From the NCBI GenBank assembly GCA_964106645.2, contig OZ067046.1: a stretch of DNA of 64,000 bases. The stretch is one strand, 5' to 3'. Position 1 is the first letter of the stretch, and each line of letters opens with the position of its first letter. Below, one piece after another: positions 14,361 through 55,327 of the stretch. The notes under the pieces were generated by a model, which was not told where the DNA came from, ran no database searches, and was given only the letters and a program-made list of their open reading frames with translations. A program made the translations under genes and the position numbers. The DNA comes from Podarcis pityusensis. Lineage: Eukaryota.

Positions 14361-14552
<192 letters not shown>

Positions 14553-16547: not shown

Positions 16548-16597
16548 GTAACTTTTGAGTAATTTTTTCTTACTCAAAATAACTGCAGGCTACATAC

Positions 16598-16952
16598 CGT
16601 GGGTGGCGCTGTGGGTTAAACCACAGAGCCTAGGACTTGCCGATCAGAAGGTCGGCGGTTCGAATCCCCGTGACGGGGTGAGCTCCCGTTGCTCGGTCCC
16701 TCCTGCCAACCTAGACGTTCGAAAGCACCTCAAAAGTGCAAGTAGATAAATAGGTACTGCTCCGGAGGGAAGGTAAACGGCGTTTCCGTGCGCTGCTCTG
16801 GTTCCCCAGAAGCGGCTTCGTCATGCTGGTCACATGACGCAGAAGCTGTACGCTGGCTCTCTCGGCCAATAAAGTGAGATGAGCGCCACAACCCCAGAGT
16901 CGGCCACGACTGGACCTAATGGTCAGGGGTCCCTTTACCTTTACCTTTACCT
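16598..16952 (+). mobile_element. Sauria SINE
   Basis: tRNA-like head (GGTGGCGCTGTGGG...GGTTCGAATCC), (ACCTTT)n tail, 7-bp TSD tacatac (16591-16597 / 16953-16959). Confidence 0.88.
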
Positions 16953-18789: not shown

Positions 18790-18881
18790 TGAATGAACCA
18801 CACAATCCTACTTGCAGAAGCCAGAAATGGAACCTGGGACCTTTCACATGCAAAATATGCACTACAGCTAAGCTACAGCCC
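18790..18881 (-). mobile_element. Old tRNA-derived SINE head fragment
   Basis: - strand GGGCTGTAGCTTAG...GGTCCCAGGTTCCATTTCTGGC. Related degenerate copies at ~25952-26027 (+), ~10447-10586 (+) and ~54650-54760 (+). Confidence 0.55.
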
Positions 18882-21645
18882 TTCTCAAATGCATGGCTGC
18901 CATGAAAATTAGCAGCTCTGTGTCTCCTGACCCCCTTCCCCTCCATGGCTATTGCATCTAATCCATGCCTCCGTAAGTTAGACAGATGACTACTGTGGAC
19001 AGAATCTCTTCTGCACTGGCACCAAGACTGTGTACCTTCCTTTTTAGGCATATTTGCCTGCTGCCATTATTATCAGAAGGCTAAACCTGTTCTATTCATC
19101 TGACTCACTGATAGACTTAATATTGATTTTCTTATCGTTGCTGTGAGTCTTTTACATTTTATGTTTTTCTGATGTTTTGTTTTTCTTTCCCTGCTGTTTG
19201 GTTTTTCTGTTTCATATGTTCTCAAGTTGTTAGATTTGTTTTATAGTTGGTATTTATATTGTTGTATCTGTTGTTCATAAGTTGGCTTGAGAATCAAAAT
19301 AGTGGAAAGCTGAGGTATAAATATTTTAGTCAAATAGAATTTACTTGTGTTCAGATGTCATGACACTTGGTGTCCCCACCAACCTCTGCTGTTGGCAGCC
19401 AATGACATGCTGCAGGCATGAGCAATTGCTGAATGCCAAGACATGCATAAGTTCTACTAGACAATGCAAAGGTTGAGAGTGGTGATTAGACCATGTGGAG
19501 GAGCTTGACGCATGGCCACCATGCATTCACATGAATCATTTGTCTTTGCTATTCAAGCCCCAAACCCTCTTGATCATGTAGAACTAACTGTGTGGCTCGG
19601 TATTGTGTTCTTTGGCATTAGATTGTTTTTTTGGAAGAATACTGAAATTTGTAGATTGCATCAGTGGAATGGAAAAGAAACATTGGTTGCATGCATGATT
19701 GCCAAAGTTTGGTAGACTTTCTAAATATTAAGATGATGATGTTCCATAAAAAATAAATCCAAGTAACTGGACTGAAAAAGCTTATAGATTTGGCTATCTT
19801 CCTAAACCTCAGTTAATATTTTACACCTGTACATTAGTGAGCTTGCTGTAGTCGCAGATTAATATTTATAGTGGGAAAATGTAACATAAAATGTAGTAAG
19901 TACTTTTGAAATCATAAAAATGTCAGCCAATGAAAACATGACCAAGACATAGCAGCAATGGAAAGAACATGCATGTGTTAAATAAACAAGGTTATAAAGT
20001 AAACATTATAGCACAAAAAGCACTCCTTTGGTGCTTTAAATTACATCGCCCTCTTATATGTGATGGGGGAATACCTGTGTATAATTTGGGCATGTGGTGG
20101 AAATTTATTCTAATACCAAATGTTCTTTATATGTCCATTGAGAACTCTTTATTTTGAATGTAGTGTTGCTCTCTAAAACTATTGCAATCTGCATCATGTT
20201 ATACTTTAGCCACCAAACAGTATCTAACAGAGAGGGGCCTCTATCTAGATTAAAATCAGAGTGAAGCCTGCAATCCTGTATATATTTACTTGGTACTATG
20301 TCTCACTGAAGTCATAAAAGCATGAATAGGAGTTGTTCAGCTCAAACATGTCTGTCCATGGTTTGCTTTGAGATGCCTTATATGGTAGCCCAGCAAATAC
20401 AGCTGGGGCTTATGAAGAAATCCATGTTACGTAGGAGTCTATCTTGAGATAACATTGCACAGGAAGCTCTAATAACAAGGCCTCTTGTTCTAGCATGAAA
20501 TGCCCCCAGGTTTTCAGAGTAAAAGAAATCACTTTTCTTTATTAAGCAAGAGCCAATGTTGTTGAACATTGCTGTGTTTCTGGAGATGCTCCACAGGATG
20601 CCGTATTAAGCAATTTGTAGTTATCTGGATTTACTCAACGGCCATATATGATGGTCATTAGCATGAAAAATAAATATGGAAGGGCTCTGAGTCGCTTTGG
20701 TTTATGATATATATGCAATAATAAGTTGTATTTAAGGATAGATTAAGCAATGGCTGTTCAATATGAACTAATTTCCTTATGGTACCCAAGGAAATTGAGT
20801 TGTTAAATATCCTTGGATGGATCTTGAAAAGAAGTGCTTAACTTTGGATCCCAGCAGTAGATGTAACTTTAAAAAGGTCTCCTGCACTTTGTCACTGTCT
20901 GGCAGACTTAGCTCATATATGGGGAAAAACAGCTGTCAGGGAGTTGAACATTCCTTGCAATATCTGCAATCTATATAATTGTTCATGTGTGAAGGGGGGT
21001 GAGAGAGAACTTGGAACAAGAAGAGGCATGTAGTTTGTGGCTAACGAGTTAAACAAATAATCTTAGGTCCATTTTGTGAAGATGAATGGATAGCGCTGCT
21101 TAAGGTCATTGTTCTTTGGGTTTCCTTGCTATACATGTGCAACTCATACAAATTCAAATTTCTAGGCTCTTTCATTCTTTGTTATGGACCATTGGGGTTT
21201 TGCATTTGTTTTATTGGACTTTTGATTATCTATTTGTCCCTTTTCACAAATAAGTTTTAAAGTGACTTGCAACAAAAGTAACATTCAGAAATGTAATACA
21301 TAGCAAACTTATCAATTAATACAGTACATCTAACTAAAAGGGTTCATCCACAATAGTCAATTGTATATCTTGCCCCATCCCAAAAAAGGAGGGACTGCTA
21401 AACTAGCCCCCGAAATTGCAACAGTATTGTTGGCCAAATGCCTGGGAGAATAAAAATGTTTTCCCCTGGAGCCAAAAAGACAACAATGTTGATGCTAGGT
21501 GAGCATCTTTGGGGAAAGTGTCCTACGAGCAGGGACTACTGAAAAAACACCATTCTCCTTTGCTACCCAAGCCTCTCCAAAGGCCTCAGCTTAGTAGTAT
21601 TTTTATCTGTATTGTTGTTTTTAGTGTTGAACTGATCCAATTGAC

Positions 21646-21893
21646 CAGGTGTGCTAACTCTAGGGGGATGAGGTATCTTCACCCCCCTCAATATTTGTTG
21701 GAAGGGGGCTGGTCCCCTCAATGTTGAGGGGGCAGACGAGGTTGAGCATGGAGCCAAGTGCAGCACACCTTCAGTGACTGGCTCCCCCTTAGTGCTCGGT
21801 CTCCTCCAGACATTGCGATGACATGACATGACCTCACACATTCGCAATGCACGTTCGGGCCCTGTCAATATTGGGGGCATCTTGGTGTCTCTG
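21646..21893. mobile_element. hAT-type MITE (degenerate)
   Basis: 8-bp TSD caattga(c/t) (21638-21645 / 21894-21901), CAG...CTG termini, GC-rich interior. Confidence 0.65.
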
Positions 21894-23557
21894 CAATTGA
21901 TTAAACTGTACAAAAGAGTTGCCTCTAATGTTAGTTGTACTAGAATATACCCATTTAAATTTTTGCAGAACACGACTAACTTAGGTCTATTAATTTCATT
22001 GGGCCTACTCTTAGCAAAACTTAGTTGGATACAACCAATATCTTCATGTCCCAGGAACTGGTGAAAATTTCATCTTATAAAACTTTTTAATGGAGTGCAC
22101 TGGATTTTTGTTTTCATAGAGGGTATTTTAAGCATGCTTCAAACCATCAAGGCATATACTGTGGCACAATCCTATTTAACCTTTATACGAAACTGCCAGA
22201 AGCTGTCATCCAGAGTTTTGGGGATAAAGTATGTTGACCAACCCAGCTCCCTCTTGCCATTCCAGCAGAATCAGGAGAGGCTGTTTGTTTAAGGTGTTGG
22301 ACTGATACGTGGAATCAGTAATAGGCTGGATGAAGGTCAGTAAACTTAATATGAATCCTGACAAGGAGACACTGCAGATTGGTGGCTCTGGGCAGCAGGC
22401 AAGCTACTTGCTCTGGAGGGGGTAGCACTCCCTCCCCCCCAAAAAAGAGCAGGTGTGTAATTGATTCCAACTTATACAGGTGCAGAGGGAATGATTTTTA
22501 CTCTGTAGGTCATACAGTTCATAATTTTAAGAGTTGATATAAGCCAATGTATTAATTATGACTAAAGTAATACTTTGGCTTATATTAATTTCATAAGGAC
22601 TAAGCAAAATGGCATCTGCCCTTGAAAGGAACTTTTTTTTTATAAGCAGTGCTGTCTGCGATTGTATATTTTTGGGGGATGGGAGGTAGCTTTCACCCAT
22701 AAAAACTGCTTGCATGATTTGCCTAATAATTTGCAAAAGTCAGCAAGTCAGAACGGATGTCTCCCTTACCTACAGTAGGGTTGAATTTATCAGCCTCTTG
22801 AACACTAAAAAAGGACATCTGCAATGCACATTTAGATGCTGAGATTGAGAACTCTCCATAGAACTGTGTGTTTTATTCACTTAGATAATGTGGACATCCT
22901 AAGAGAACACTATGATTGCAGCCTGGTTTCCTGTACAGTAAGTGCCTTATACTAAGGTTTATAGCCAATCTAGGATTGGCAGGGACAGCAAAAACATTTT
23001 ATAGTATATTTCCCCAACTTCAAATTATGCTGCGTTATTCCTGGCTGAGAAACAGTGAAACTGTAAGAATGAAATAATTTTAATCCTGGAGTATTCATTT
23101 CTTTCTGATTATACAAGTTGGTTGGAAGTGGGTTTAATAATGTTGGCAGATGACGCAAGTCTTTGTAAAAGACACATGATGAAGCTTGCAGTGACCGATG
23201 AGTACACAATAAATTTGATTTATAATTGCTCTCTGGGAAAGCAGTGTCTCATATTATATCATATTATATTATATATAATATTATATATTATAAATGTAGA
23301 CTTGATATTACAGTATATGATACCCAAACATGGTTTAAGAAGCAGCTGAACATGAAAATGTTAGATGTTGACCAAAGGAACAGCATAACGGGCTGGATCC
23401 AGACATGACTCCCATCAGAAGTGAGGAGGTAACTTTTGTTGATTTTAGACTAGTGTGGGAATGGTGCAAAAGTTGACTTCTCACACTTTGCCACTGGATC
23501 CATGGACAGAAGGAGCTGTTCAGTTTGCAGAAGCTGAAGTATAGCTACTTGGATGAT

Positions 23558-23807
23558 AAGAAGAAGAAGAAGAGTTTGGATTTGATATCCCGCCTTTCAC
23601 TCCCCTTCAGGAGTCTCAAAGCGGCTAACATTCTCCTTTCCCTTCCTCCCCCACAACAAACACTCTGTGGGGTGAGTGGGGCTGAGAGACTTCAAAGAAG
23701 TGTGACTGGCCCAAGGTCACCCAGCAGCTGCATGTGGAGGAGCGGAGACGCAAACCCGGTTTCCCAGATTACGAGACTACCGCTCTTAACCACTACACCA
23801 CACTGAC
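23558..23807 (-). mobile_element. tRNA-derived SINE, Squam3-like
   Basis: - strand head CAGTGTGGTGTAGTGGTTAAGAGC, about 250 bp, (CTT)n tail; second near-identical copy at 59202-59439. Confidence 0.8.
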
Positions 23808-25373
23808 ATAAAATATGTCTTCTTGTCAGATACCTGTGACCTAGCTCCTACAAGCAACAGATGAAATGGGAAATCTGTTTTTCAACTGTAGCGTTGCAAA
23901 CTGCAGATAGGGATTGGCATGTCTGAAAAGGAAAAAAAAGTCCCTGCATATAGAAAACTGGATGTCAGAAAGAAGGGTTCTCAACCAACTTTCTTCCTGG
24001 CATATTAAATTTCTACACACAGGGGATGTTTCATTTGGAGGAGCATTTAAACCTCTTGCAAGCTGAAGTAGTATGCCTCAAACATACGTTTATCATCTAA
24101 TCGGCTGCTTGTGGCGACTGGTGTTGCTTGTGTCAGTACAAAATTAAATGGGCTTTTGTTGGGGCCCTGTATACTGCTTATTAATTATTTGATGTGCAAT
24201 ATTAATGATTTATTTCAGAGTGCCTTATTTGTAGTCAAGGTTTGCAGCAAAATGTAGCATAAGGATTCTTCCCTGTCTGAACTAGTTTAGCTTCCTAGAA
24301 GATTCACACTATAAAATACATTATTTTTAACTCACACAGCTGCTGATTTTATGCAAAGATTAAATGGATTAAGGAAAATACATAGCTTGTAGATCCCAAT
24401 ATGTTGCAGTTGAACCAGTTTATGTTGGATAACATTATGATGTATGAATACTGCATAGTACTGTGCAAGGATATGCGATGCTTTATGAAACAGTCCTAAG
24501 ATCTGTTGGGCTAACAAAAAAGAAGAAGAAAAGTGCAAGATCACCAACTGCAATATTGTATTGACAATGAGCTGTTAATGCAGGTGGATATGTTGACCCA
24601 TTTCACACATCATGATAAACTGTAGTTAATGCTTAGTGTAAATGCCCAAGAGGCTCTCTTCACAACACTTCTCTAGCCAGTAAGAGCAACATAGCATGAT
24701 TCCTGACTTAAGTGTTATGGCCAAACTAGGGATCATGGTTTGTTGTGTTCAAACAATTAATAAGCAAAGAACAAACCTTGGTGTAACAAAATATGATCTC
24801 TGGTTTGGATGCAATGCTAAGTGGGGAATTGTGGTTTGTTGGACCTGCTGGATAAGAGGAGAGGTGCAAAGTGGGGGCCTCTTGTGCATTTATGGTAAAC
24901 TATTACTGTATTGGCCTGAATATAACCCTCACCTTTTCCCCAAATTCTGACCATGAAAAGTGACTTTTATGATATCGCTGCTGAAACAGACATATGGTAG
25001 AACGGAATGGGTGTGAGTGCCTGCAGAATTTTAAGTGAGTGGCTTATATTCGGGTGCCACTTATATTCAGGCCAATACGGCAACTATGGTTTACCATTAC
25101 TGCTACTGTCATGACCATAGCTGCTGTTTTTCTCAGTGTAGATGGATTTCAAGGAGTAGTTGGACTGGACATCCTGTTGTGGTGTGGTTTGATCTGAACT
25201 GAACTGTTGCTATTAATTTTCAAAACCATTGATATGCCTACTAATTACAGATGTTTATCTTTTCCTATAGCAGGCAATATTAAAGATGGAAGATAATTTC
25301 TATTGAACCTCAATTCTATTGTTCCTGTAGTATCTTAATTAAAAAGTCACCTTTAAAATTTTCCTGTTTCTAG

Positions 25374-25579
25374 AGGTTCTGCACGAGCAAGGACCATGGC
25401 ATATTTTGGAGAAGGAAAGGGCCCCATCCATGTGGACAATGTGAAATGTACAGGAAATGAAAGATCTCTTGCTGACTGCATTAAACAGGATATTGGCAGA
25501 CACAATTGTCGTCATAGTGAAGATGCGGGGGTGATCTGTGACTACCTTAGCAAGAAGACACCTGCAAACAGTAATAAAG
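25374..25579 (+). CDS. PRSS12: Neurotrypsin exon, SRCR4 C-half
   Basis: ttctAG acceptor, GTgaag donor; GSARARTMAYFGEGKGPIHVDNVKCTGNERSLADCIKQDIGRHNCRHSEDAGVICDY. Confidence 0.95.
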
Positions 25580-25791
25580 GTGAAGTGGGTATTATATTGA
25601 TTTCTTCAGTGCTTGCTGGAAGGAGGAAAAAATATATTGATGTGGATTGTGTGTTTCTTTTTAATAAAAAAGATACAGAAGTAGTGGGTCAGCCCTAGTA
25701 ATGCCATACAGAAAACAAGCCAACACTTGAAATAGTGCTCTGCTGTTTCCTGATGGGAGACTCTAATGTCTATGATTTCATTCCTGCATAG

Positions 25792-25870
25792 ATTCTCTTT
25801 CTTCTGTGTGTGGTTTGAGGTTACTGCATCGTCGGCAGAAGCGGATCATTGGAGGGAAAAATTCTTTAAG
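25792..25870 (+). CDS. PRSS12: Neurotrypsin exon with zymogen activation site
   Basis: catAG acceptor, GTaaat donor; SLSSVCGLRLLHRRQKR|IIGGKNSL, a proprotein-convertase site followed by IIGG. Confidence 0.95.
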
Positions 25871-26240
25871 GTAAATGGAGCAATTTTTAAAAAATGATAC
25901 TTGGGCAAAAAGCTATTAGCTTGGATTCAAAGAACCAGAGTGTGAAAAGGCGAGGGCCTTAGCTCAGTCATAGGGCACACACCTTGCTTGCAGGTGGTCC
26001 CAGGCTCATTTCTTGTCATTTCCAGGTGAGATGCAGGGACAATCTTGTTTGCAACAAAACATGTAACTCAAGAAGAGCTAGTTTTATTGGTTTACAATAG
26101 GAGAAAAGACTGCCGCTTGCCGAATAATTTATAAATGTAATCTTAATTCAGAATATCACTTAACAAGTCTCATCAGTTCATGTCGCCGAACAGATTTTGC
26201 AGCTCCTGCAGGGGACAGAGGTAAGCTGCAGAACTACTGA

Positions 26241-26516
<276 letters not shown>

Positions 26517-28513
26517 TAGTATAGGAAGGAGACCAGTGCAAGGAAGACAAAGACCCTACTGACAGTTAATTTTGAGATTCAGCCAAGAGCACTGCATGTC
26601 CAGCCATTCCAGGCCAGTGCAGAAACATTAATTGGGTCCTTCAGTCAGGATTTGAATTTGCTCAGCAGCAACCCAGTGAGACAGAGTAAAGCATGACCAG
26701 TGATCAAAACCAGGCTCAGTATTGTAGCTTAAATGAATCAATAGTAAATGAATAAATACTTTTATTAGTGTTACAATGCTTCACTTAAGGCATATAGAAA
26801 ATGTCATTTTGAAAATTGCAGAAAATTAACTATCAGCAGTGAAATACAGTAGGAAATAATCCATAATAATGACACAATTCATCATAATTTAATTAGTTCA
26901 TAAACTAACAGTTGTATTTACAAATCAAGCAACCAGTTACATAGCGCAACAGAACCGCCAGGTTCTCAAGGTACTAAGCATTTTTAAATAAAGTTGATCA
27001 TTGCCAGTCCAGGACAGTAAGTTTATATATTGTGCCTTTCAACTGGGCAAAAGCTTGTGACTGGCTGACTCAGTTACAAAGTCCATGGTAAGTTCAAGCA
27101 ACTGATGAGTGGGCAGCCCTGTGGAGGATGGTGGAGCTCAGCATCCTGCCTTCTAAACAGATCCTGTTCTCAATCTGATTTAGATTTTGAAATTCCCTTA
27201 ACAGTCAACAACATTGGGGTTAAAAAAAGAGTAATTGTTTTCTTGCTTCTAGTGCATATAAAGCTACCTTGTAGGTAACAAACGTTTCTGATCCTCTGAA
27301 ATGGCCATCTGATCCCGTCCACACCCACTCCCTGTCCAAATTCAGAGGATCAGAAATAAAGTGGAAGTTGATGTAGTAGTTTAAAATAACTTAAGCATAG
27401 ATCATAGAATATGTGTGAAGTGGATCTACTGTACAAGCATGATATGTAGTCTAGATATCTTAAAAGCTTCGTTATAGTACAGCATCATTCAAACTTGACT
27501 GAGATGAATAGAACTTCCTCTTAAAATGATGAAAAGTTACTAAATATGCAGAGTAAAGAGAGACAAATTTAACAGCAAGTTTCTCTAGCTGCATTGCATT
27601 TCTGCCTTTGGGACCCACTTGAGAAAGCTGAGACTGTGGTGCAAGGGCTGAGCCAGTCGCAAAATGTTGGCAGATGGAGGCAAAGTTTGGCATAATCAGC
27701 TAGCAAGCACTGACACAATTTTCTACCAATATCAAATTCATCTTTGGAAATTGTTAAGTTTCTTTCCCACAGCGTTTTTATTTGTAGCAATGAGTTCCAT
27801 AGCTCAGCTCTTGCAACTTCCTGTAGGGCAATTGTGTGTTTCACAGTGATGGTTATTATCAGTCTGTCAGTGACTACTTAATACAAGAAGTCCTCAGAGG
27901 AGGCTGTATGCATGCATACAGTGGTGCTTATGTTTACAATAGTCTAAAGAGGGCTGTAAAAATTGGCTAAGGGACTGGTAACTTCAGCCAAATTGTTATC
28001 CTCTTAGTATATAATCTCACCCGCTGAAGAGGTGATGTGGGGAGTGGAATTCGGCAGGGAACCTAATCCTTTTCCTGTATCAGGATGCTTTTTAAACTCC
28101 ATTTATACATCTGCTCTGTGAATAATCTGCCGCATGGTAGAGCAAGTACACATAAAACGCTCTGCAGCCTTTATTTTTCGGCTTTCTTCCTAAACCAGCG
28201 CGAGTTCACCGCAAAAGAACAACTGTGCTATCTCTTATTTCCCAGCCTACACATCCTGTGCCGTTTCAGGACATTGCATTGACAGAAAGCACCTTAGCTA
28301 GGCCAGATACTGAAAAAGAACTACAACAGATTTCCAGCACTGAGGAGCTCATGTAGGACCCATACTCTGGAGTTTCGAAATTCTGCAGCACTTAGGTCAC
28401 ACAATATTATTTGCATATTCTCACACAAGCATACACACAAATGTCTCCTAATCTGTCCTAGTCATTTGTCACCCAAAATCTGCCAAATTATACAAAATGT
28501 AATCTGTTCTATA

Positions 28514-28730
28514 CAGCAGTGTAGCTAGCCGCTAGGGCAGATGTAAGCCGCACGATGCCTTTTCGGGCAGCGCAGAGCTTGCAATGCAGTCTGCCCACTG
28601 CCTCTCCATCAGCTGTTTCGGGCAGTGCAGAGACATGTGGCTCGGGCACACTGCAGGCCCCGTGGTAAGTGCAACCCCCCACGGTGTGGCGCCCACTGTG
28701 CCTTGCCCCGCCCCCCCAGCTATGCCTCTG
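28514..28730. mobile_element. hAT-type MITE
   Basis: Perfect 8-bp TSD gttctata (28506-28513 / 28731-28738); imperfect CAG..TAGCT TIRs; GC-rich interior. Confidence 0.8.
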
Positions 28731-28895
28731 GTTCTATATATCTGTATCCGAAAGGCTGCCTCTATTTTACAGATTTTTCCAAACTGCAAATGGTAAATAT
28801 ACCTTTGCTTTATGGGAAACGATAGCCTAGTGGGGAATTTTTTATTGACTAGTGCAGGAAACAAAATCGGTTTACTTGTCCACATATAGGCAATT

Positions 28896-29248
28896 TCAGA
28901 GGGACGCTGGTGGCACTGTGGGTTAAACCACAGAGCCTAGGACTTGCTGATCAGGTCGGCGGTTTGAATCCCCACGACAGGGTGAGCTCCCGTTTCTCGG
29001 TCCCTGCTCCTGCCAACCTAGCTGTTCGAAAGCACGTCAAAGTGCAAGTAGATAAATAGGTACTGCTCTGGCGGCAAGGTAAATGGTGTTTGCGTGCGCT
29101 GCTCTGGTTCGCCAGAAGTGGCTTAGTCATGCTGGCCGCATGACCCGGAAGCTGTACGCCAGCTCCCTCGGCCAATAAAGCGAGATGAGCGCCGCAACCC
29201 CAGAGTCTGCCACGACTGGACCTAATGGTCAGGGGTCCCTTTACCTTT
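28896..29248 (+). mobile_element. Sauria SINE
   Basis: Same family; 12-bp TSD atataggcaatt (28884-28895 / 29249-29260). Confidence 0.88.
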
Positions 29249-30734
29249 ATATAGGCAATTGCAATGAGAGCTTTTTGCTGCATCATTAAGTACTGAAGTT
29301 TAATTCAGCTCTTCTTGTATTCATTACTGTGAACAACTATCCTTCATTCTTCAAAGAAGATTGAAGCAAAGCCACAAGCATTGCCAGAAGGGAGACAAGC
29401 CACCTCTTTGCTGTGGGTGTCAGAACAGATCATTTGTGATTGAGTTGTGACATTAAGTCAAAGTATTCTATTGATTTCTCTCATTCAGATGGTAGAGTTC
29501 CTACAAGTAAATTAATGTCAAGATTCTAGGCTGACAGGTCACTGGAAAACACATTTCCATAGTATTTGAAGCTTATTCACACCACTATTGGCATGAAATT
29601 ATTTCTTAAATTGTAACAGCCAGCGCAGAAACCTGAAATATACGATACCAATTAATACTTAGCTTATCATTCTCAAAATTGTCGTTCTTATGTGAAAAAA
29701 TAATTTTAGAACACCTTTCTAAATAGTGGGAGAGAACACTGAGAGTATCAGAAGTTAGAAATTTCATTGCAAATGAACTTAGGAAATGTGTTTTCCCTCC
29801 CTTCATATTATATATCAGGAATACAAATCTCAAACTGGAAAATCAATTGTATTGGGGCAGCAATGCTATTTTTACCTTTAGCTCAGCTGCTTAGATTAAG
29901 TCACAAGGACTCCCATGAATGATAGCCACAATTTAGATTTATGCGAGTATGCTGTGTGAAGGATTTTTATCTTTCTGAAATATCAATGATTCTACAAGTC
30001 CTTGCTGCCCTTCACACCATCCTGTGAGAAAACTGTATTTATGAACCTTTTTTTAAAGGTGTCAACATAATTTTTGAATCTCCTTTTTTCTTAAAAAAAG
30101 CATGCCTTTGTTTCAACTCATAAGATAAATCCTGAAAACAATCTTCATTGACCAGTTAGGAAAATGACACTATTTTTCCTATGGGAAAAATGTGTTCATG
30201 TTTTTTTTTTTTTTTTAAATAGTATAATTAAAATACAATTTGTGGGGAGTGGGTGTTCATGATAACAAGGGTCAATCTTTCCATATTGCACTTTTTATTA
30301 TTTAACATCAGCTGCATTTTTCCATTTGAATTTCCAGACAAAGGAAATACAGGGGATTTGCAAGAGAACTATACAAAATATTAGTGTTGGAAAGGGGTTT
30401 TCTGTCATGTGCCCCCGTTGTTCTTTTCCTCAGTGCTAGATGTCATCCAAAACATGCAAACTCTTTAAACCACATACAATGATGTATTTATTATTGGAGT
30501 TCTTAATCCTGTAAAACGGTTTTCTTTAGTCAAAACAGACTGGACTGATTAAATAAATTGACCGTAGTTGACCAGGCCTCTGTGTTTACAGTAGCTGAAA
30601 CTACTACTAAATTGTAGAGGCGCTTTTTGGTGGGGCGGGGATTTTACAAAAACCTTGAATCTTTAATGAAACTTTCCCAGTGTCTTACCAGAGAAGATCA
30701 GTCCAAAGGTGATAGCTTATTTTCTTCTTCTTAG

Positions 30735-31015
30735 ATATGGCAATAATACTCGGAGCTATGTGGTGCGTGTTGGAGACTACCACACATTAGTGCCCGAGGA
30801 GTACGAGGAAGAAATTGGAGTACAAGAGATTGTGCAACACAAAGAATATAGGCCTGATAGCAGTGATTATGACATTGCGTTGGTGAGGCTGCAAGGACCC
30901 GAAGAGCAGTGCGCTCGCTTTAGCACCCATGTCTTGCCTGCTTGTTTGCCACTCAGACGAGAGAGGCCACAGAAAACTGCTCCCAATTGTTACATCACTG
31001 GATGGGGTGACACAG
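30735..31015 (+). CDS. PRSS12: Neurotrypsin protease-domain exon with catalytic Asp
   Basis: cttAG acceptor, GTaagg donor; YGNNTRSYVVRVGDYHTLVPEE...DYDIALVRL...CYITGWGDT. Confidence 0.96.
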
Positions 31016-31381
31016 GTAAGGATTGTTTTTACATCACAAAATAATTTTTTCCTTACTATGGTCAAGTGGACTTCTTGTCATAACTCACCTACGGGATGAG
31101 ATAAAAAAATTAAAATTTTAGATTTAAACTTAAGTTTTGATCATTCAACAAGTGTACAAAATATGAAGAAAACTGGATGACACGAGGTAAAAAAAGTTGG
31201 ATCACTTGATATGGAATGACCCAGCTAGTAAAAGCTTTTCAGACAGGTCTGCCTGGATTTTTGCTTGTAATACCAACTTTTGTTGTTGCTTAGATATGGC
31301 AGGTGCTAATTTTTCTATTCTAATGGTGCTCAATGTGTTGCAGTGGATTGTCTAAAATTGTTATGCTGTATCCCACCTTGG

Positions 31382-31733
31382 GGGATGCGGGTGGCGCTGT
31401 GGGTTAAACCACAGAGCCTAGGACTTGCCGATCAGAAGGTCGGCGGTTCGAATCCCCGCGACGGGGTGAGCTCCCGTTGCTCAGTCTCTGCTCCTGCCAA
31501 CCTAGCAGTTCAAAAGCACGTCAAAGTGCAAGTAGATAAATAGGTACCGCTCCTGTGGGAAGATAAATGGCGTTTCCGTGCACTGCTCTGGTTCGCCAGA
31601 ATTGGCTTAGTCATGGTGGCCACATGACCCGGAAGCTGTACACTGGCTGCCTCGGCCAATAAAGTGAGATGAGCACCGCAACCCCAGTCGGTCACGACTG
31701 GACCTAATGGTCAGGGGTCCCTTTACCTTTACC
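31382..31733 (+). mobile_element. Sauria SINE
   Basis: Same family; 13-bp TSD with one mismatch, tatc(c/t)caccttgg (31369-31381 / 31734-31746). Confidence 0.88.
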
Positions 31734-32155
31734 TATCTCACCTTGGCAACTTCTGGTTTAACAGAATTGTTTGCACAAGTCTCAGAGTCAAGTATTCCTG
31801 CACAGAATTTTAAAATACTGCAAAAAGTTGCCTTCTATTGCTAGTGAGGTGGCTTGGGAGAGATAAATGAAAGGTATGGGTTCCATTGCATCCACATACT
31901 TTATTATTATAGTTTTTGTCCATTTTTTCCTATAGAAAGATGGCCGGAAATAACCTAATATATACTGTAGTTTTGTGGTATCTCCCTCCAAAAAAACCAT
32001 TGTCAATTACAAAGACCCTACTAAGTGTGAAAACAATGCTACATGGCAATTGACTGGCGTAGAAATAACATGTCTGGAGGGAATGCAGAAGACTGCAATA
32101 ATTCTAACACACATTTCACATTCAGTATGTCAAAGCCTATATTTTTCTACCACAG

Positions 32156-32463
32156 GAAGAGCTTACTCAAGAACATTGCAACAAGCTGCCATCCCTCTGC
32201 TTCCTAAAAGAATCTGTGAAGAACGCTATCGGACAAGGTTCACAGGAAGGATGCTCTGTGCTGGTAGCCTCCAAGAGCAGAAGCGTGTGGACAGCTGCCA
32301 GGGAGACAGTGGTGGGCCGCTCATGTGTGAACGCCCTGGAGAAAGTTGGGTTGTATATGGGGTGACCTCCTGGGGTTATGGCTGTGGAGTCAAAGACTCT
32401 CCAGGTGTCTATACCAAAGTTTCCTCCTTTGTACCTTGGATAAGAAGTGTGACCAAACTATGA
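32156..32463 (+). CDS. PRSS12: Neurotrypsin last coding exon with catalytic Ser and stop
   Basis: cacAG acceptor; RAYSRTLQQAAIPLLP...DSCQGDSGGPLMCE...PWIRSVTKL then TGA at 32461-32463. Confidence 0.97.
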
Positions 32464-34817: not shown

Positions 34818-36551
34818 TATCTTGTGCTAACATTTCCCCATTTCAACACCCCCCCCCCCTTGTGGACAAACTGAAATGTATCTAACCTGTATGTAAATTA
34901 CGGGCAATCCATTTCAGCTCACAAGCCAGATTTGTCTTTCACTTTTAGCTGCCTGGAGGTCACCTGCTCCATCAAAAATACTCCATCCTTACTTGATGTT
35001 ATGCCTAGAACTCTTTCAAAACACTAGTGTGATGTTATCTCTCCTTTCATTCAAATTAACACTCCAAACTCTGTTTCTACAGGGCAGGCAACATGGTGCC
35101 CTCCAAATATTACTCCAACATTCACCCCTGTCCATGCTGGCTAAGGCAGAGGGAAGATCCACTCCCCCTTCTTTTATCATGTTAAATTTTAAATGGTAAA
35201 ATTATTTGGGGGAAAAGGTCAAATGACAAATTGTGCATGACAGATTACAGAGTACATGAGGTGAGGCCCCTGTCCCAAGGAAGGAGACAGATAAAAGGAG
35301 AAAACATTCAACTATTTGTAGGCTCTGTTACACTATTGCACAGGAATGGTTTTTTTCAAATGACTTCAATGAAAAGTGCCTTTGAGATTCCTATTTTGTA
35401 AAGCACCACACACACTGATGCATTTGCAACACCTACTACTGTGATCAGCCAGGTTAAAACCAAGCAACTAAATTGGGAAAACAGTAAAAAATTGCAAACC
35501 ATTTTAATTTTAATGTATCAAAACCACAACATAAGGCAATATATACACATAAAAATACAAACTGAGGAGGCACTTTCCTCAATTTACTCCACAGCAGTTA
35601 AAGTGCCTTTACAAAGCAAACAAATCTTATACATTAATTTCAATTATTTAAACTGTATTCACTTGTAATATTTACAGCTTATAATAGCTTTGTTTCAGGC
35701 ACTAAAGTTATTTATGTTTTCATTGCTGTAACACTGTTGAGAACAAAAATTTCATGACTACCCTGTTAACACACACTTTTAGCAGAAGCATGTGCCACTT
35801 CCACTGCCCATCTTCAAACTCAAGAGTAGCAAGCACATATATCCTGCAAAAAGAAAAAAAGGATGCTAAGTTTTACAGCCCATCAAGATTTTATCGCAAC
35901 TCATTTTTAAAGATGAAGGAAATTATTAAGTTAGATTGTTTATGTATAGAAGTAATTTAGTGCAATCAAGTTGTATTTAAATATTTTTCCGCAAATAGCA
36001 CTGCGAAAGACTAAGCAGCTGGTCAAATGCCACACTCCCAAGGATACTAATTAAAGATGTCATGCATGCCTTCTTAGTTATCAGCTCTAATTTCAAAAGC
36101 ACTTTCACAGAATGTGCTAGTTTTGAAGAGGGCTTTTGAAGTAACATTGGAAGATGACCTTGAGACTCGCTTGTAAGAGAATTCCAATTTAAAACCCAAA
36201 GCCAGTGCAGTTAGAAGAGGAAGGAGGCTCCCCAACAGAAGCTTAACTGCCGAAAACGGCAAGTTCAAGGAGGCTCAATACGACCGCTTTTTAGGCCACA
36301 AGGTCACCCCCAAGCAAGGCCCTTTAGTAAGGAGTGCGCAGCTGACTCTTACCCAATATTACCATTGAAACTTTCAGCACTTTGCAATAATTACCAAAAA
36401 AACTTACTCTCACAACTGTGGGTAGCTTCAAAGCAAGCCACATTTGTACATTGACAAGGGGTTGATGGGGCAACTTCCTTTATGAAGGCGACCTCCCCTC
36501 CCTCCCCATTCCAGGCGACGATCCCTCAGCGCGGCGCCTCTACCGAAGGAA

Positions 36552-36686
36552 CGCTGTTACTTGCCCTAGTCAGAGTCTCGCCCCAATTAAATGGTGCGAG
36601 CTATGCCAAGGAGCAAGGTGACCGTTTGCTCTACCATGAATAGGAAGGGAGGCTGCCACGCTGGCAGGTCCCATGGAAGCATGGAG
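36552..36686 (-). ncRNA. SNORA24: Box H/ACA snoRNA SNORA24 (ACA24)
   Basis: - strand reads CTCCATGCTTCCATGGGACCTGCCAGCGTGGCAGCCTCCCTTCCTATTCATGGT-AGAGCA(H box)-AACGGTCACCTTGCTCCTTGGCATAGCTCGCACCATTTAATTGGGGCGAGACTCTGACTAGGGCAAGTA-ACA-GCG. Two hairpins, ACA 3 nt from the end, and close similarity to mammalian SNORA24 as I recall it. Confidence 0.93.
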
Positions 36687-37181
36687 TTGGTCCCCGCCCC
36701 CACTCTTTACCCGGCAGTCCCAGCGAGCGCACGAGGCGCGCGTTACTCGGCATTTGAAAACGACGCCGGAGCGCAAGAAGGCGGCCCTCAGCGCCTCAGG
36801 ATTCCCTTCCGAAGTAAAGTAAGTTGTCCTACCTGTAGGCCCGCTTGGCTCTTCCTGTTCGGCGTCGCTAGGACTCCCCCCGCCCTCCCCCTCCCGAAAC
36901 AACAGCCTCCTTTTAAGCACTGCGACAGTTGCGGCGCATGCGCGCTAGATGCCCTTCGCTCTCCTGAAGCATCTTACGCTCCGAGACGAAGGGACGCTTC
37001 TCCTGCGAAAAGCACGCTCTGGTTACAGGCGCGTACTCAGGAGAAACACGGGAAAATAACCATCCCCTGTATTTCTCTTCCCTTTCCCCACCCTCGCCTA
37101 GGCCTAGGCCCAGGCCCAGGCCCAGGCCCACCCTTCCTCTTCTTCCAACTAAAGCCCAACCGTCGCCTCCAGAACGCCTTC

Positions 37182-37219
37182 GAAAAGGAAGAGGCGCGCG
37201 CCTCGCGAGCGCTTTTATA
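37182..37219 (-). promoter_or_regulatory. TATA box plus TCT/5'TOP initiator
   Basis: - strand: TATAAAA (37219-37213), then GC-rich spacer, then CTCTTCCTTTTC (37193-37182). TATA sits about 26-28 nt upstream of the likely start C. Confidence 0.82.
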
Positions 37220-47358: not shown

Positions 47359-49730
47359 CTGAGGGATACAAAAACCAACATTTTATTTGGGGAAATACTA
47401 CAGTGTATATAGTATTTTGTCTTCCAATTTACTTTATCTTGATCTGAACTCAATCCATTTTTTTTATTTTTATTTTTTTTGTAAATCACATTTGGAACTA
47501 AGTATCAGCAATTGAATTACTTAAGGCACAGACAATTTAACCCATCTAATGACACTACACAGAAAAATGTTTCCTGCACACACAGCTTCCATTTCCAGCA
47601 GTTGGAGCTGCACTTGCAGAACCTTTTTCAAAAGTTTAAGGCAGTATTAGAGTCTCTGAGAAGGAGTCCTAAGGGCTACAGGATTTGTTATCAAAGAGAT
47701 TCAATGCTCCCATGCCTTCTCTGTGAGACTACAATAGTGCTCTAATCCTAGCGAGTCCTCCTCTTTCCACAACAACCTCTCAGGATGGGACAAACTGCTG
47801 GTCCTGGAGCTAGACAGGTGGTAGGTAACCTGTGGTCCTTCAGATGCCACTGGACTACGATTCTCAAGCCCCTGCCTATTGCCATGTTGGCTGTGGCTGT
47901 GGGAGTTAGAGTCTAAAGGTTGGGGGAACCCCCAGAACAGATTTATGGAGCTTGGGGGAGAAGAGAGGGAGAGGAAGTTCTGTTGTGCTGCCAGAAGTAC
48001 AAATGAAACTACTTCGTTGGATACTGCCCCAACAATATTTGGAGGGGCACATATCCATTTTAGAGGATAACATATTTGTACTATGAGTGCAATCTTAATC
48101 CTGCATTACCTTTCCCCCACTTTTCCTGATTGTGACTGTAGGGTGGTTCAAGACTAACTCACATTTAATGAGCTTGAGTATGCACCTGATAGAGGAAAAA
48201 TAATTTTAACGTGTGATAGTATACTTCACTTATCCTGGATCATTTTAGTAGTCCTAAAGCAGGAGTAGCTGAGTAATGCTGTCCAGATGTCATTGACTAC
48301 AGTAACAGCCCCAGTTGTTATGGCCAAAGGTAAAGGATGATGGGAACTGTAATTCACCAACATATGGGGTGTGGAGGGGTACTATATTGGCTTCCTGTCC
48401 TAAGCAATCACAAATCTTTTGTCCACATCACTAGGTTAAATAGTAGTAATGGATCTAGCTTGATTGGCTAGACCGTAATCTAGTTTTAGAGTATTGGAAC
48501 AATTTCAGTGTCTTTCCTGAATTTGTAGAGCCATTCTACTTAGTCAATAAAATATCCATGTGATATTGTGTAAGATATTCTCTACATGGTAGTGAGCTTT
48601 ATTGTAAAACCATGTTTGTGAATAAAAACTAAAAGTCTCCCACTCCTCTCTGATCACACTTTAATCATTTATGAATAAATGTGAACATTTATCCAATTAT
48701 TTGTAAATATACCACATAAAAGATCTTTCAATGCATCAATTTCTTAAGGGCTGCAGCATACCATATTGATAGGGATCTGATCTGGGGTGAAGAGTGCTTT
48801 AGGGGAATGGCTGCCCTATCAAGGAGAAATCAGACAGAATTGCCACTGACATTGGTTGTAACTTTAAGAACTGTAATTTTAAGAACTTGTGACTGAGCTT
48901 GTTTACCCCTCTTCCCTCTCATTCCTTTCCCCCCTGATGTGCCATGTCTTTTTAGATTGTGAGCCTGAGGATAGGGACCGTCTTAGAACCAATTTTTGTA
49001 AGCTGCTTTCAGAGTCTTTTTGGCTAAAGGGGAAAGTATAAATGCTGTAACTAAATAAACATTCTTCATTTTTTCCAACAACCTGCAAGACTGAGATCTG
49101 AAATATGAGGTAGTTTTACAGAATCATTTAGGATGATTTATGTGGAGGAGTTACCCCTAATGTTGTATCTATGATGTTAAGCCAAGCATTTAATGAGCAA
49201 ATTTTCCCCTGTGCCTTGTGTCTGTGTTTGTGACCCTGAGGTCCTTATCCTCTGCCCCTTCCTGGTGCTTGAATCCTAAAGTCCAACCAAGGCTCCACCT
49301 CATGCATATAAGTGTTCATATCTTCATTTGAGAAACAGGAATTGTGCACCTGAGATAAAGAGGATCCCTAACAAATTTAGGAATAAATTAACTAAATTCA
49401 GGATAAATTTAATTAACATTCTGGTCCTTTTCAAGTAACACAAAAATCTGAATAATCAAGACATTGCATATGACAATAGCTTTTGTGTGCTTTTGCTGAG
49501 AAACTTAGTTCTAAATAAAAATATGCAAATTTTTACAACAATCCATATGGATGAATTGCAAATGAAGTAAATGGCATACTGGGTACATTACAATTCAACC
49601 TAAGTTGTTAAGTCCCATTCATCTTAAGGGAAGAGTTAAGTATAAACTTAAGGTTTCTTTCACTGAAATCACTCTGAAGTATGTTATGTTTGGCTGGATC
49701 TTATCCACAGCACAACTGATAAGAGTTTAC

Positions 49731-49833
49731 CTCAGAATCCATTGGAGGGTACTTTCTGCCTTTGCTCTTCCCAAGACATTTTGTTTTTCCTTCTTCTAAG
49801 AGTTGACACCAGAAGCCCTTGTGTGAGTCAAAC
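49731..49833 (-). CDS. NDST3: NDST3 exon, sulfotransferase domain
   Basis: tttcAG acceptor, GTaaac donor; [34 protein letters not shown]. Confidence 0.94.
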
Positions 49834-50555
49834 CTGAAACATATAATGCCTTTAGATACAATGAATAACATCATTCTGCGTGTGGGGGAAAAAAGTGAAA
49901 TACAAGCCATATTGCATTGTTGCCTTTTCTCCATAAACTGAGAGCTAGTTCATATGATGACCTCTAAATGAAGCATTATTAATGGACTCATCCACTGCCA
50001 CCACATGCTGATGAAGCACTTCCTTGCTGCTCCCTCAAAGAAAGGTGACACCACTGAGCACTCATCATCTTTTACATGGAAGAAGGAACAATAATGGTAA
50101 CATGTCCATTAGTTTCTTGGACTTCAATAAAATTTCATGAGGTGCAGTCTTTCAAATATGGTGCTGTGTGATCTCCTGCAAATGCATTATGGGATTTCTT
50201 TTTGTGTGTGAAAAAGGACAGTTTACCTGTCAAAAGATGCGTTACAGGAATATTCAAACAGAACTATTGTATTTGCGGCTTGGGTAACCAACTGCATGGA
50301 TTCCATAGCCATAGCTGAGGTTAATGTGCACCAGTTCTCAGAAACATGAATATCATTTGTTCTGTTTCATTGTTTCTACCTATCCTTCTTTAGAATACTG
50401 AGCCCCATTAACATCTCTAGTGTGGGAGTCATTACAATGTTCTTCCTTCACAGACTATGAGAGTAACATAGGAAATTCCAGGTTCAATGTGAGGAGCCCA
50501 TGTGATGGCTCCCCCTGTGCCATCCATGCCCGTTTTCTGGGAGGGACAATGTTTG

Positions 50556-50790
50556 CATGAATATAAGAAGAGTCTTGCTAGATTAGATCAAAAGCTTGTC
50601 TAATGCAATGTTCTGTTCTCACAGTGGCCAGCCAAATGCTTATGGGAAGCCATCAAGCAGGACATGAATGCAATAGCGCTCCAGAACTGGTTTTCAGAGA
50701 CATACTGCATATGATACCCGAAGTAACATAAGGCCATTATGACTAGTAGTTAATTAATAGCATCTGCCATGAATTTGTTTAGTTCTTTTA
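50556..50790 (-). mobile_element. Degenerate CR1-type 3' fragment
   Basis: Resembles the cataagaa...ctggatcaga...tgttctcacagtggcca motif; a related piece lies at ~41555-41655. Confidence 0.5.
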
Positions 50791-51691
50791 AAAAGTCGAC
50801 TGTTTTCACTACCCCAAGGCACGGGGTGAATTATTATGGCACAGTAGTGCACAATAGAGAGGCACTATGTCATACTCTGGACTTCATATGTGACACACTT
50901 GTCCAAAATATTGGGTGCTGGTGGTTTAAGCAAAGATTAATATTCACCAGCTTATATAAACTGCATGGAAAAAGAAAAGAAGACATTCAAGGTTAAATAA
51001 ATTCAGAGTGTACTTTTATGAGAGCTGTATCAGATCATTTAAGTGAACAAGTAACCCTAAATAGAAATCTTTTAACAAATCATTGTTCGCAAACAAGAGT
51101 AGACAGGAAAGAAAAGCATGCGCTGGAATTAGATGCAGATGGGAATAATTCACAGCATCCAGGTCAAGCAGTACGGTGTAAAAGGGGCTGAAAGCTCAAT
51201 AGAATTACTCTAGGGGTGAATTTGATCCATTATGTCTTTACAATGCACTTGACTTTATCTCATGGAAGATAAAGTCGGGGTTTTTTGCCACATACTCAAC
51301 AAAAAAAAGAACAGCACAATTGACTAAGAGGCGTTAAATAGAGAACTGTCTGGGAATGAACACTATTCTTTTTTGAGAGCTTCTTATGAAAACAGACAAT
51401 GGGATTTCATACAAAAGAGCAGACTAAGGTTATCAATCTCATTTTAAGGGCAAGTGAATAAATGTTTGAATCAAAATGGTTTGTGTACATGACTATTTAT
51501 TATATACACAGTGGGTCCTGTATCCCTGACACTGGCATTGTTGTGCCTTTCTAATCAAATAAAAAGAAAAGCAGCTTCTGTCCTTGCTGCTTATGGATAG
51601 TGAATCTTCTGCTGCTGAGCAAAGAGGTGGAAAGGCGTTCCACTTATCCATTCAAAAGCAGAACCAATTTATAGAGAACAGTCCTTGTTTT

Positions 51692-51737
51692 TTCTGTCTG
51701 GTGTCTTGACTGTTCTGTCTGGTGTCTTGACTGTTCT
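51692..51737. repeat. 21-bp tandem duplication
   Basis: ttctgtctggtgtcttgactg x2. Confidence 0.9.
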
Positions 51738-52314
51738 AAAGTGGTTCACCATATGCATGTTTACAGTAAGATTTACAGAAATAATTTTCTTCCCAGTGGT
51801 TGTGTACAGCGAACAGGATTATTGTGAATTAGCTGGGTTGTTCCCACCTCCACTCCCGAAAGGAAATCGTGATGTCATAAGGTCATGTATGAGTACATAT
51901 TTATGCATGGGAATTAAATGGGGGGGAGGCTTTTAAAAACCCGCATATTTCTAAAATTAGAAACAGTGAGCTGGTTCGGATGATCATGTCTTGACTTAAT
52001 AAGACAATTTGTTTTGTGAGCCAGCTTTCTGCCTGTATATGCTGACCCTTTGCATGGGTTGTAAATAAAACAAATTAAAGCAAATTAAAAAGGCTCAAAT
52101 AAACCACAACTTCTTGTTTCTTCTGAACCAGGAAGTTTGGAACAAGCCAGAATTCTAAAACAACTTGGTATTTAGCAAGCCACCAGGTATCAGTAAGTAG
52201 CAAGTGCACAGAATTCCACGCTGGTGAGTTAGTGAGAGACAGGCTGGATTTCTCCATTTCTTCTATGCCAGCTAATAAAAATGCTTTCTGCCAACTGTGT
52301 TGACAGGTTGGCAT

Positions 52315-52388
52315 TCATATACTTCATATACTTCATATACTTTCATATACTTCATATACCTCCATATACTTTCATATACCTCCATATT
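52315..52388. repeat. ~9-bp minisatellite (TTCATATAC)n
   Basis: About 8 imperfect copies. Confidence 0.88.
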
Positions 52389-52764
52389 TCATGGAGGAGG
52401 AGGCTTTCCCTCTATGGCTAGCATGAAATCAGTCCACTAGCCCCTTAGTAGGCTAGCAAAAACAACAACATGTGAGCTAGTTTATTTACAAGGCTGTCTT
52501 CAATGGTTTGAAGCTGAGTCAAACTTGCTCAAAAGGTGGCAACCAGTTGCTCCCCAGTTCAAACAAAATGGGAAGCTATGGTTACTTATGGACTTCCTAC
52601 TTTGATTACAACTTATGTGAAGAGACTGTGTGCATAGGAAAAATGCTTACTCATATCTTGGCTTGTTAATCTGAGATACTATTGTCTGAACTGGCTCCTT
52701 ATTGCAGTTCTTACTTTTATCATACTATGCAAACTGTGTTAAATAAATCAATGAATTAACTCAC

Positions 52765-52874
52765 GTTAGGGCTTCTGAGTAATTATAATGAGGAGTAACT
52801 CCCAGAAACTTCTGCACTTCGTCCATCACGATAGCTGGATCATTTCTCAGCTGCTGTCCATCAATAATTAGTAA
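52765..52874 (-). CDS. NDST3: NDST3 exon
   Basis: poly-C AG acceptor, GTgagt donor; [36 protein letters not shown]. Confidence 0.93.
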
Positions 52875-53759
52875 CTGGGGGGGGGGGGTAGAAAAGTCAA
52901 CTGTGAATACTGTATTTAAAATTCATTATATGTCAGACTTCAAACATTTTTTCACATACGCAAAGCTCAGTCTTTAAGAGGAACTGAGGTGCCCCGGGGA
53001 TCAGTAATAAATCCATTCATATTTATCACCACTTTTAATGATCTAGGAGTGAGGTAAATGGCTCACTAATTAAATCTGAAATGATATTAAATTGGAAGCT
53101 GCTTGGAATACTAGTGATGGTAGAGAAATAAAGATCTTGACCCAGATTAATTAGAACTATGGTTTGCCCTGAAAAATGCTATCAAATGTAGCTTTGAAAA
53201 CAAAAGCAAGATATAAAACATATTTATATCTTCTTTTTCTTAATATCATTCAGTCTGGTGACAGTTAAATTCAGAAGCAGAACAGGAAACAGTTTTTTGG
53301 GTGTGTGCCATTCTTTAATTGCTTGTTATCCTCTTGGACTACTATGAATGAGCAAGGGGCTCTAGGAGGTAAAGCAGCTGAGTTATTTTTAAGTTGATTG
53401 ACCATGTGAGCCACTTACCCTGCGAATCTGGCAGCATCTTAGCAGGAAACCGCAAAACAACAGCAACGAAGAGATTGACAGTGACTTATCACATGAAACC
53501 TCATTTAGCAGGCCCTGCCTGTCACTACTACGGTCATAGTGGGACTTAAGATAGGACAGAAAGTGAAAGAACCTTAAAATAAGAAAAAAATATTGCGGTA
53601 CATCATTCCAATGAATGCATGGGTTGTACTATTCTTCTAACTTTTAGGGAAGAAGCCCCTGGGTATTTTGCGGCTCAGACAGTTGCCAAAATGATTTTGA
53701 AACAGCCTACCATGAAGATCAACATTTCACAAGGTAGTAGAGAGGGAGTAAATATTTAC

Positions 53760-53930
53760 CTGATAAGGTGGAAAGTAAGTTAGCCATCTTTCTATATGGG
53801 TAGCATACCATCCAGGTACTAGACATTTCTTTTGAAGAGCCTTAAGCTCTGCTGAAGCATGATGTCCAGCGCTGATCACTTGATAGAAGGTAAACTTTAG
53901 AGCTGCAGGGTCTTTGTGTGATCGCTGGTG
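53760..53930 (-). CDS. NDST3: NDST3 exon
   Basis: ctccAG acceptor, GTaaat donor; [57 protein letters not shown]. Confidence 0.93.
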
Positions 53931-55152
53931 CTGGAGGGAAAAATGTTGAAGTAATGCAAATGGAAAGCAGAATGGCCAGCTTCTACTCTTAAAAGGATAC
54001 TTCTTTAATTTTAACTGCTTGACAATGCTAAATTGTGAATTTTATAGAAACTGGACAGATGAAATATATGATAAACTAATTCCAGTAAGGATACATTGTT
54101 GATTACTTTGGGTAAAACACTAATAGGGTATGCACAGAATAATCAATATAATTTTTGTTGTTAATTAACTGCCCCTCACTTTAATTTCCCATGTAAAAGT
54201 GGGAAGAAGCTAACACTAACATCTTTCCTTGATTGCTTTTAGATCTAACCCATTTGATGAGCTACTTTGTTGAGAAATGACCATATTTGGATTCTAGGAG
54301 GGTACAATTAGTCCTTTACCCAGGGACTTGAATATAGGTTTAGCAGTAGTAATGTTATTCTTATTAATGATAAAAATAAAATATTTTAAAAACACCATCT
54401 CAGCAATGAGAAACAGTGTGTAGTATGACTATACCAGTGACTGCCTATGCCAATGACAGTCAGATAACTCTGTTCCTTGGACTATTATTGTTAATAAGCT
54501 TAGCAGCTAGAAAACTTGAGCAGTTATCTATACAATTAGTAATAAGGCAATAGAAGCTTGAGGGACAGACAGGCCAGAGACATCCATTGACTCTTGTAGG
54601 ACACATCAAATCTTCAGCTGAAGCAGTCTGTTGCTGCTTGTCACACCACACCAAAGCTCAGTCCCTGGAATCTTCAAGTAGGATTAGTAAAGGCACTGTT
54701 CTGAGACCCTGAAGAGCTAGATGGACCAATAATCTGACTTAATACAAGGCAGCTTTCTAAATTTCTAGGACAGTATTGAATTCTATAAGAAACTAGCTAT
54801 AAGGGAAAATAATATCATAATAGAAAAGTATACTATAATAAACTTATGAGAATTAAAGGAATGGATCACCAGTCTTTACCAGCAGTCCAATCCAAACCAA
54901 ACCAAACCTATAGATTAAGAAATGATGCTGAAATCTTAATCCCATTTACCTAGGAATAAACACACTGAAATAAATGGGGCTTATTTATGAGTAGTCATAC
55001 CTAGGATTGTGTGGTGACTTGTTAAGAAAGGCTTAATTCAAATAATGCTTTGTCCTTCAAAATAAAATAGAGGTGCATATGCTAAAACAAGCAACCCAAA
55101 ATTCTTTATCATATATTAATCTAGAACCTGAATTAATTCTTAAATCTTCTAC

Positions 55153-55327
55153 CTGATACCAGGAGTATGCTCGATCTGATGGATCAATGAGAATGGTGAT
55201 GATTTTTGCCTTGGGAATCAAAGAAGCTGCTCGTTTTGGGGCTTCTTCAGAATGGAAATAGTTAGCACTCTTCTCAAAAAGGAAGTCTGTAGTAATGTTT
55301 GAAGGTGCAGGAAAGAATTCCATATAC
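55153..55327 (-). CDS. NDST3: NDST3 exon with 3'-phosphate binding motif
   Basis: ctgtAG acceptor, GTagaa donor; [24 protein letters not shown]...[14 protein letters not shown]. Confidence 0.94.

Follow-up and report, generated by a model that had tools for sequence, protein, structure and literature searches.

The 64,000-nucleotide stretch analysed here (the window) carries this genome's SNORA24 gene, situated in a spliced intron of a non-coding host transcript that is likely orthologous to SNHG8. From there it probably acts as an H/ACA guide for pseudouridylation of 18S rRNA at U818 and, less certainly, at U568 (we give this reading a probability of about 0.9). The coordinates of the gene, its host and the surrounding features are collected in Table 1.

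Table 1. Features of the SNORA24 locus, its flanks and the related cluster on contig C2
Feature	Position	Strand	Evidence or remark
Box H/ACA snoRNA SNORA24, 135 nt by Rfam match	36552..36686	-	RF00399 full-length, 71.9 bits
H box AGAGCA (ANANNA)	36627..36632	-	14 nt after start of pocket-1 3' arm
ACA box	36555..36557	-	3 nt from 3' end
5' hairpin pocket (pocket 1), arms 36678-36673 and 36646-36641	36641..36678	-	pairs around own 18S U818 (human U863)
3' hairpin pocket (pocket 2), arms 36609-36603 and 36571-36568	36568..36609	-	7+4 pairs around own 18S U568 (human U609)
TATA box TATAAAA	37213..37219	-	sequence; about 31 nt before likely host RNA start
Predicted host exon 1, beginning with C and a pyrimidine run (5'-TOP-like)	37132..37188	-	adapter-like read ends; donor 37131 by sequence alone
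Upstream part of the host, comprising predicted intron 1 (37131-37003) and exon 2 to donor 36832	36833..37131	-	intron 1 kept in contigs and processed copies
GT-AG host intron, 989 nt, holding the snoRNA	35844..36832	-	reads and contigs from related species show joint 35842-36832 (ends CT..AC)
Host last exon	35492..35843	-	ATTAAA hexamers 35514-35503; RNA-like contigs end at 35492-35495
PRSS12/neurotrypsin-like protease exons (SRCR repeats and trypsin domain)	1862..32460	+	flanking gene, tail to tail with host
NDST 3' exons (NDST3 by position)	49704..55359	-	upstream of host, facing PRSS12; piece at 49704 by motif match only, no Pfam hit
352-aa frame with reverse-transcriptase domain	61334-62389	+	Pfam RVT_1, E 1.1e-17
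Tandem cluster of zinc-finger arrays and host fragments	C2:110381666-110871783		each fragment on its array's strand, 0.8-6.1 kb behind

Identity, architecture and copy number of the snoRNA

A search of the window with Rfam returned a single hit at gathering level, at 36552-36686 on the minus strand, which spans the SNORA24 model RF00399 from end to end (positions 1-131 of 131; E 3.8e-11) and scores far above its gathering threshold of 40 bits. A sequence-only reading had named this element SNORA24 and proposed a search with the Rfam model as the check; both the name and the expectation of a significant match are borne out, and the element is a genuine SNORA24 orthologue, belonging to a family already known and already named by Rfam.

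The RNA has the hairpin-hinge-hairpin-tail layout of a box H/ACA snoRNA, with an H box of the form ANANNA and an ACA close to the end, and the AGAGCA box, the terminal ACA and the four pocket arms all lie where they had first been placed. The 14-nt distance from the start of each 3' arm to its H or ACA box likewise holds for both pockets. Published rules put the target uridine 14-16 nt from the H or ACA box (PMC8522698) and ask for bipartite pairing of at least 8 bp (PMC6049503); here the spacing is 14 nt in both pockets, which form 12 and 11 pairs with this genome's own 18S rRNA. The folding energy of the RNA has a z-score of -1.82, with 8 of 200 shuffled sequences equally stable, so that folding by itself gives modest-to-weak support to the assignment. 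The snoRNA begins with a region that contains two CCATG pentamers (36676-36672 and 36684-36680, minus strand), and the 3' strand of the lower stem could therefore pair with the pocket-1 arm instead. The minimum-energy fold of the whole molecule adopts this pairing, which closes pocket 1, and was set aside; the centroid structure and the isolated hairpin keep this pocket open.

Searching the own genome (1.515 Gb in 336 contigs) gave one SNORA24 match. Scoring covered 44 of the roughly 123,800 candidates from the first look, so that a single copy is likely rather than proven.

The host transcript and its genomic setting

The snoRNA lies on the sense strand of the host intron, 146 nt from the donor and 708 nt from the acceptor. 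Sequencing evidence for the host came from 8 of 24 runs, all of them from related species. The GT-AG joint around the snoRNA is crossed by 62, 5, 2 and 0 reads in runs X20, X24, X23 and X22, respectively, and it is also found in contigs of all four further runs. One of these, contig 1 of X1 (an RNA run by our guess), joins 35524-35842 to 36832-37160 and differs in only five letters, for which reason we assign it to the host itself. Within the own genome, 16 processed copies carry the identical joint. A shorter intron that the sequence would allow, from a GT near 36710 to an AG near 36540, was rejected, as no read or contig of these runs has such a joint.

The likely start of the host RNA is marked in X20, a run from a related species, by reads with adapter-like loose ends, 62 at 37187 and 18 at 37188, which we take to be adapter-derived. 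Another 16 reads of this run have adapter-like loose ends at 36885, a possible second start inside exon 2. The joint of exon 1 is not visible, because read alignment was blocked there by a short run of GGGCCT units in tandem (37085-37142, minus strand), lying just within the predicted intron 1. The observed-to-expected CpG ratio is 0.92 in the host island against 0.23 for the window, and the snoRNA lies downstream of the island. With or without its first intron, the predicted transcript contains no ATG-initiated open reading frame longer than 23 codons. A protein-coding reading of the 209-aa frame at 36591-37217 on the plus strand was discarded: it has no Pfam hit and runs antisense in the GC-rich island.

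Taken together, RNA from related species and the processed copies describe a spliced non-coding transcript with SNORA24 in a sense intron, as in hosts of the SNHG8 type. By analogy with established H/ACA biology, the host RNA would be made from the TATA/5'-TOP promoter in the CpG island and then spliced, and SNORA24 from its intron would serve as an H/ACA guide for pseudouridylation of 18S U818 and, less certainly, U568.

Human SNHG8 is presumably situated between NDST3 and PRSS12. The two genes stand in facing arrangement in vertebrates (PMC4359090), human SNORA24 is hosted by SNHG8 (PMC6776443), and a single list of 4q genes names human SNORA24, SNHG8, NDST3 and PRSS12 together. Given that an ORF-less TATA/5'-TOP transcript with a SNORA24 intron lies here between a PRSS12-like and an NDST-like gene, the host is likely the SNHG8 orthologue. 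Elsewhere in the window, we take the frame with the RVT_1 domain to be the 3' end of a CR1-type LINE, and the repeats to be CR1, BovB and Sauria SINE elements.

Pocket 1 pairs perfectly with the U863-equivalent site

The own genome holds 13 full-length 18S matches, and of six that were retrieved five were identical while the sixth differed by one base. The 18S segments that the sequence-only reading had proposed are present in this rRNA, and its assignment of the pockets to human U863 (pocket 1) and U609 (pocket 2) agrees with the contexts of the SCARLET oligonucleotides (PMC6776443) and with the aligned 18S sequences of the PMC6984369 supplement. One position that is C in birds and mammals is U in the own 18S, resembling lizard, frog and zebrafish, in which it is U or Psi. 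Taken with the genome size and with the reverse-transcriptase frame and repeats named above, this would suggest a squamate.

Both pockets were scored under 36 register and gap settings against 18S, 5.8S and 28S rRNA, with 2000 shuffles per pocket. Across all settings, the top-scoring rRNA site for each pocket was its own target. Among these shuffles, the observed score was reached 9 times for pocket 1 (64 times by pair count alone) and 75 times for pocket 2 (215 times by pair count alone).

Pocket 1 forms 6+6 Watson-Crick pairs flanking U818, as expected of the SNORA24 5' pocket, and is predicted to be open, at an opening cost of 0.17 kcal/mol; in comparison with the Rfam consensus, used as a proxy for human SNORA24, its 5' arm is wholly Watson-Crick. 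The supplement of PMC6984369 lists Psi863 for whiptail lizard, chicken, mouse, amphibians including frogs, and zebrafish. Knock-down of Snora24 in mouse lowers both Psi609 and Psi863 (PMC6776443). SNORA19, the other predicted guide, failed to modify an 863/866 substrate in yeast. The own genome has two SNORA19 matches (110.7 and 99.7 bits), which form a pair at C5:53034354-53036830 with 2.3 kb between the copies. Because pocket 1 is open and perfectly paired, the whiptail lizard has Psi863 and SNORA19 failed in yeast, guidance of the U863-equivalent site is well supported by inference, and we regard pseudouridylation of U818 under the guidance of SNORA24 as highly probable.

These results bear also on whether the copy could be a SNORA24 pseudogene, decayed or retroposed, whose RNA is not processed, which we consider extremely improbable. 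Its score does lie well under those of the two SNORA19 matches, obtained with a different model, and the mature 135-nt RNA was unobserved in libraries of long read pairs that could not have shown one, with no accumulation of read ends listed either. Nevertheless, it is the sole match in the genome among the candidates scored, it occupies a spliced intron in sense orientation at the conserved position, and it retains both boxes, their spacing and a perfect pocket 1, while lizard 18S carries a Psi863 for which the literature examined reports no other working guide.

Pocket 2 pairs with the U609-equivalent site in a weaker form

The pairing first proposed for pocket 2, 4+6 pairs with one G-U, was recovered at U568 with arms at 36608-36603 and 36571-36568, and can be extended by a second G-U to 4+7, that is, 11 pairs. 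The pocket thus agrees with the SNORA24 3' pocket, in a form weaker than pocket 1, and has pairs on both sides of the unpaired UG. Its 3' arm has four contiguous pairs followed by an A-A mismatch, against seven pairs in the Rfam consensus. On the other hand, where the consensus has a G-A mismatch adjoining the target, this pocket has a G-U, and its arms retain the letters GACU and UGGCA though the upper stem is altered. The pocket-2 strands are predicted to be paired with each other in the free RNA, at a cost of 4.85 kcal/mol to open, or 3.77 kcal/mol with the two differences listed for relatives; one difference in related species, at 36612, replaces a G-U of the lower stem of hairpin 2 by a G-C. 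Since the Rfam consensus structure also draws these strands paired, their predicted closure is no peculiarity of this species and was downgraded as an argument.

What places the second target in doubt is that the one lizard measured in print is without Psi609: in the supplement of PMC6984369, Psi at the U609 equivalent was undetected in four amphibians and in the whiptail Aspidoscelis neomexicana, and found in mammals and birds. This comparison rests on whiptail rRNA rather than on a whiptail SNORA24 sequence, and as none of the 10 mentions of SNORA24 in that supplement describes a lizard guide, the negative may reflect a loss specific to whiptails. Our literature search on SNORA24 in lizards and on Psi609 in reptile 18S found nothing in main texts, the lizard datum itself standing in a supplement, and a scan of metagenome contigs for SNORA24 copies of other vertebrates returned none.

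These observations can be read in two ways. SNORA24 may be a one-target guide here, in which pocket 1 makes Psi863 while an eroded pocket 2 pairs on paper and is inactive at the U609 site, a reading to which we grant somewhat less than even odds. The unmodified whiptail uridine, the shortened 3' arm with its adjoining mismatch and the predicted self-pairing of the strands would all agree with it, and there is precedent for guides that pair well and are inactive on endogenous rRNA (PMC8522698). Against it, the 11 pairs left, which include both pairs beside the unpaired dinucleotide, are above the minimum of eight (PMC6049503), and the consensus mismatch next to the target is replaced by a G-U in a pocket that retains the arm letters given above. 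Further, expression of human SNORA24 in frog cells leads to Psi at the 609 equivalent even though the pairing is non-canonical (PMC8522698).

The evidence for Psi at U568 is therefore split, and we lean slightly towards its presence. The earlier claim that both guide functions are kept is well supported for U863, with its perfect open pocket and the Psi863 of the whiptail lizard; guidance of U609 is not established, given the whiptail result and the four-pair 3' arm. A redirection of pocket 2 to a different rRNA uridine, of the kind known from the Xenopus copies of SNORA24, which pair 18S-105 or 18S-1607 (PMC6984369 supplement; PMC8522698), appears very unlikely, as U568, with a score of 25, was unbeaten across the 36 settings on all three rRNAs, the next sites reaching at most 22.

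Processed copies of the host accompany a zinc-finger gene cluster

Because a spliced joint was present in a DNA-like run, X15, the own genome was searched for copies of the host. For the host upstream part and for the last exon, 19 of the 20 matches listed in each case lie on contig C2, between 110.39 and 110.87 Mb, the remaining one being the host itself. A motif scan of 580 kb of C2 shows 21 C2H2 zinc-finger arrays (at least three fingers each) and 22 host-like clusters. A host-like fragment lies behind every one of the 21 arrays, at up to 4 kb downstream in 16 cases and at 5.0-6.1 kb in four; the remaining array, the only one on the minus strand, has a minus-strand host copy about 1 kb beyond it. 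One host-like cluster is without a zinc-finger array of its own.

The exact exon-exon joint is present in 16 of the 22 fragments, which retain the predicted first intron, so that the C2 copies independently record the splice sites of the host intron. The snoRNA intron itself had no hits in the 580 kb, and the possibility of a second SNORA24 within the copies was dismissed, with no SNORA24 match in any of the 19 loci. The copies are about 68-72% identical to the host over the upstream part and about 91% identical over 70 nt of the last exon. Among aligned positions, 173 of 613 host CpG sites are changed in the copies, against 451 of 3344 other positions. Most simply, a host RNA that had been spliced in part would have retroposed once, to a place behind an ancestral gene for a zinc-finger protein, and tandem duplication would have followed.

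Many reads from related species are 90-95% alike to the host and have a loose end at 35776, and are explained by processed copies of this type; such copies appear to be transcribed in related species. Three C2 units (L011:2670-2716, L014:2721-2776 and L015:2683-2738) repeat about 50 nt of the last exon roughly 830 nt beyond its first occurrence, as would be expected if a duplication flanked an inserted element. The zinc-finger units are separated by frames that, on visual inspection of their first residues, resemble retroviruses and LTR retrotransposons (for instance C2:110648418-110651623, and across L030-L049). A literature search on lizard zinc-finger genes and retrocopies of snoRNA hosts, judged by titles and the beginnings of abstracts, brought up nothing on such host fragments. 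The processed fragments behind the 21 arrays can mislead the quantification of the host by RNA-seq.

Comparison with known systems and significance

Vertebrate lncRNAs of the SNHG family that host snoRNAs form a class with 5'-TOP starts. The present host resembles them in its CpG-island TATA promoter, its start with C and a pyrimidine run, its splicing and its lack of any frame longer than 23 codons; unlike them, it has had spliced fragments copied 22 times into a zinc-finger cluster. The snoRNA shares with human and mouse SNORA24 (ACA24), the guide for Psi609 and Psi863 within SNHG8, the full-length family, the boxes, the target sites and an intronic location in a non-coding host. In comparison with the Rfam consensus, standing in for the human RNA, it differs in the shortened pocket-2 3' arm described above and in a hinge that is 5 nt longer. 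In Xenopus tropicalis, the 5' pocket of SNORA24a/b is also assigned to the U863 equivalent, 18S-U825 (PMC6984369 supplement), and both copies are without the 609 pocket, whereas here one copy pairs with the 609 site.

As an annotation alone, a SNORA24 gene that Rfam already names matters little, and the finding is mostly ordinary. The value of the locus lies in a discrepancy that can be tested cheaply, since the guide pairs with the U609 site and yet the mark is unreported in the one lizard measured. The state of Psi609 in this species would tell whether squamates vary among themselves or whether a pocket that abides by the rules can be silent. We tentatively entertain, as a proposal that is rather more likely wrong than right, that squamates are losing Psi609 of the decoding centre by decay of a single guide pocket, this reptile's sole SNORA24 still forming 11 pairs at the U609 site in accord with textbook rules and being inactive there because the 3' arm shrank from seven pairs to four. 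Psi609 belongs to helix 18, close to the decoding centre, and SNORA24 loss has been associated with altered decoding, and with liver cancer in both mouse and human (PMC6776443). If the proposal were true, pocket 2 would be a natural intermediate between the active pocket of birds and mammals and the absent pocket of frogs, and would lend itself readily to testing which properties allow an H/ACA pocket to act on real rRNA.
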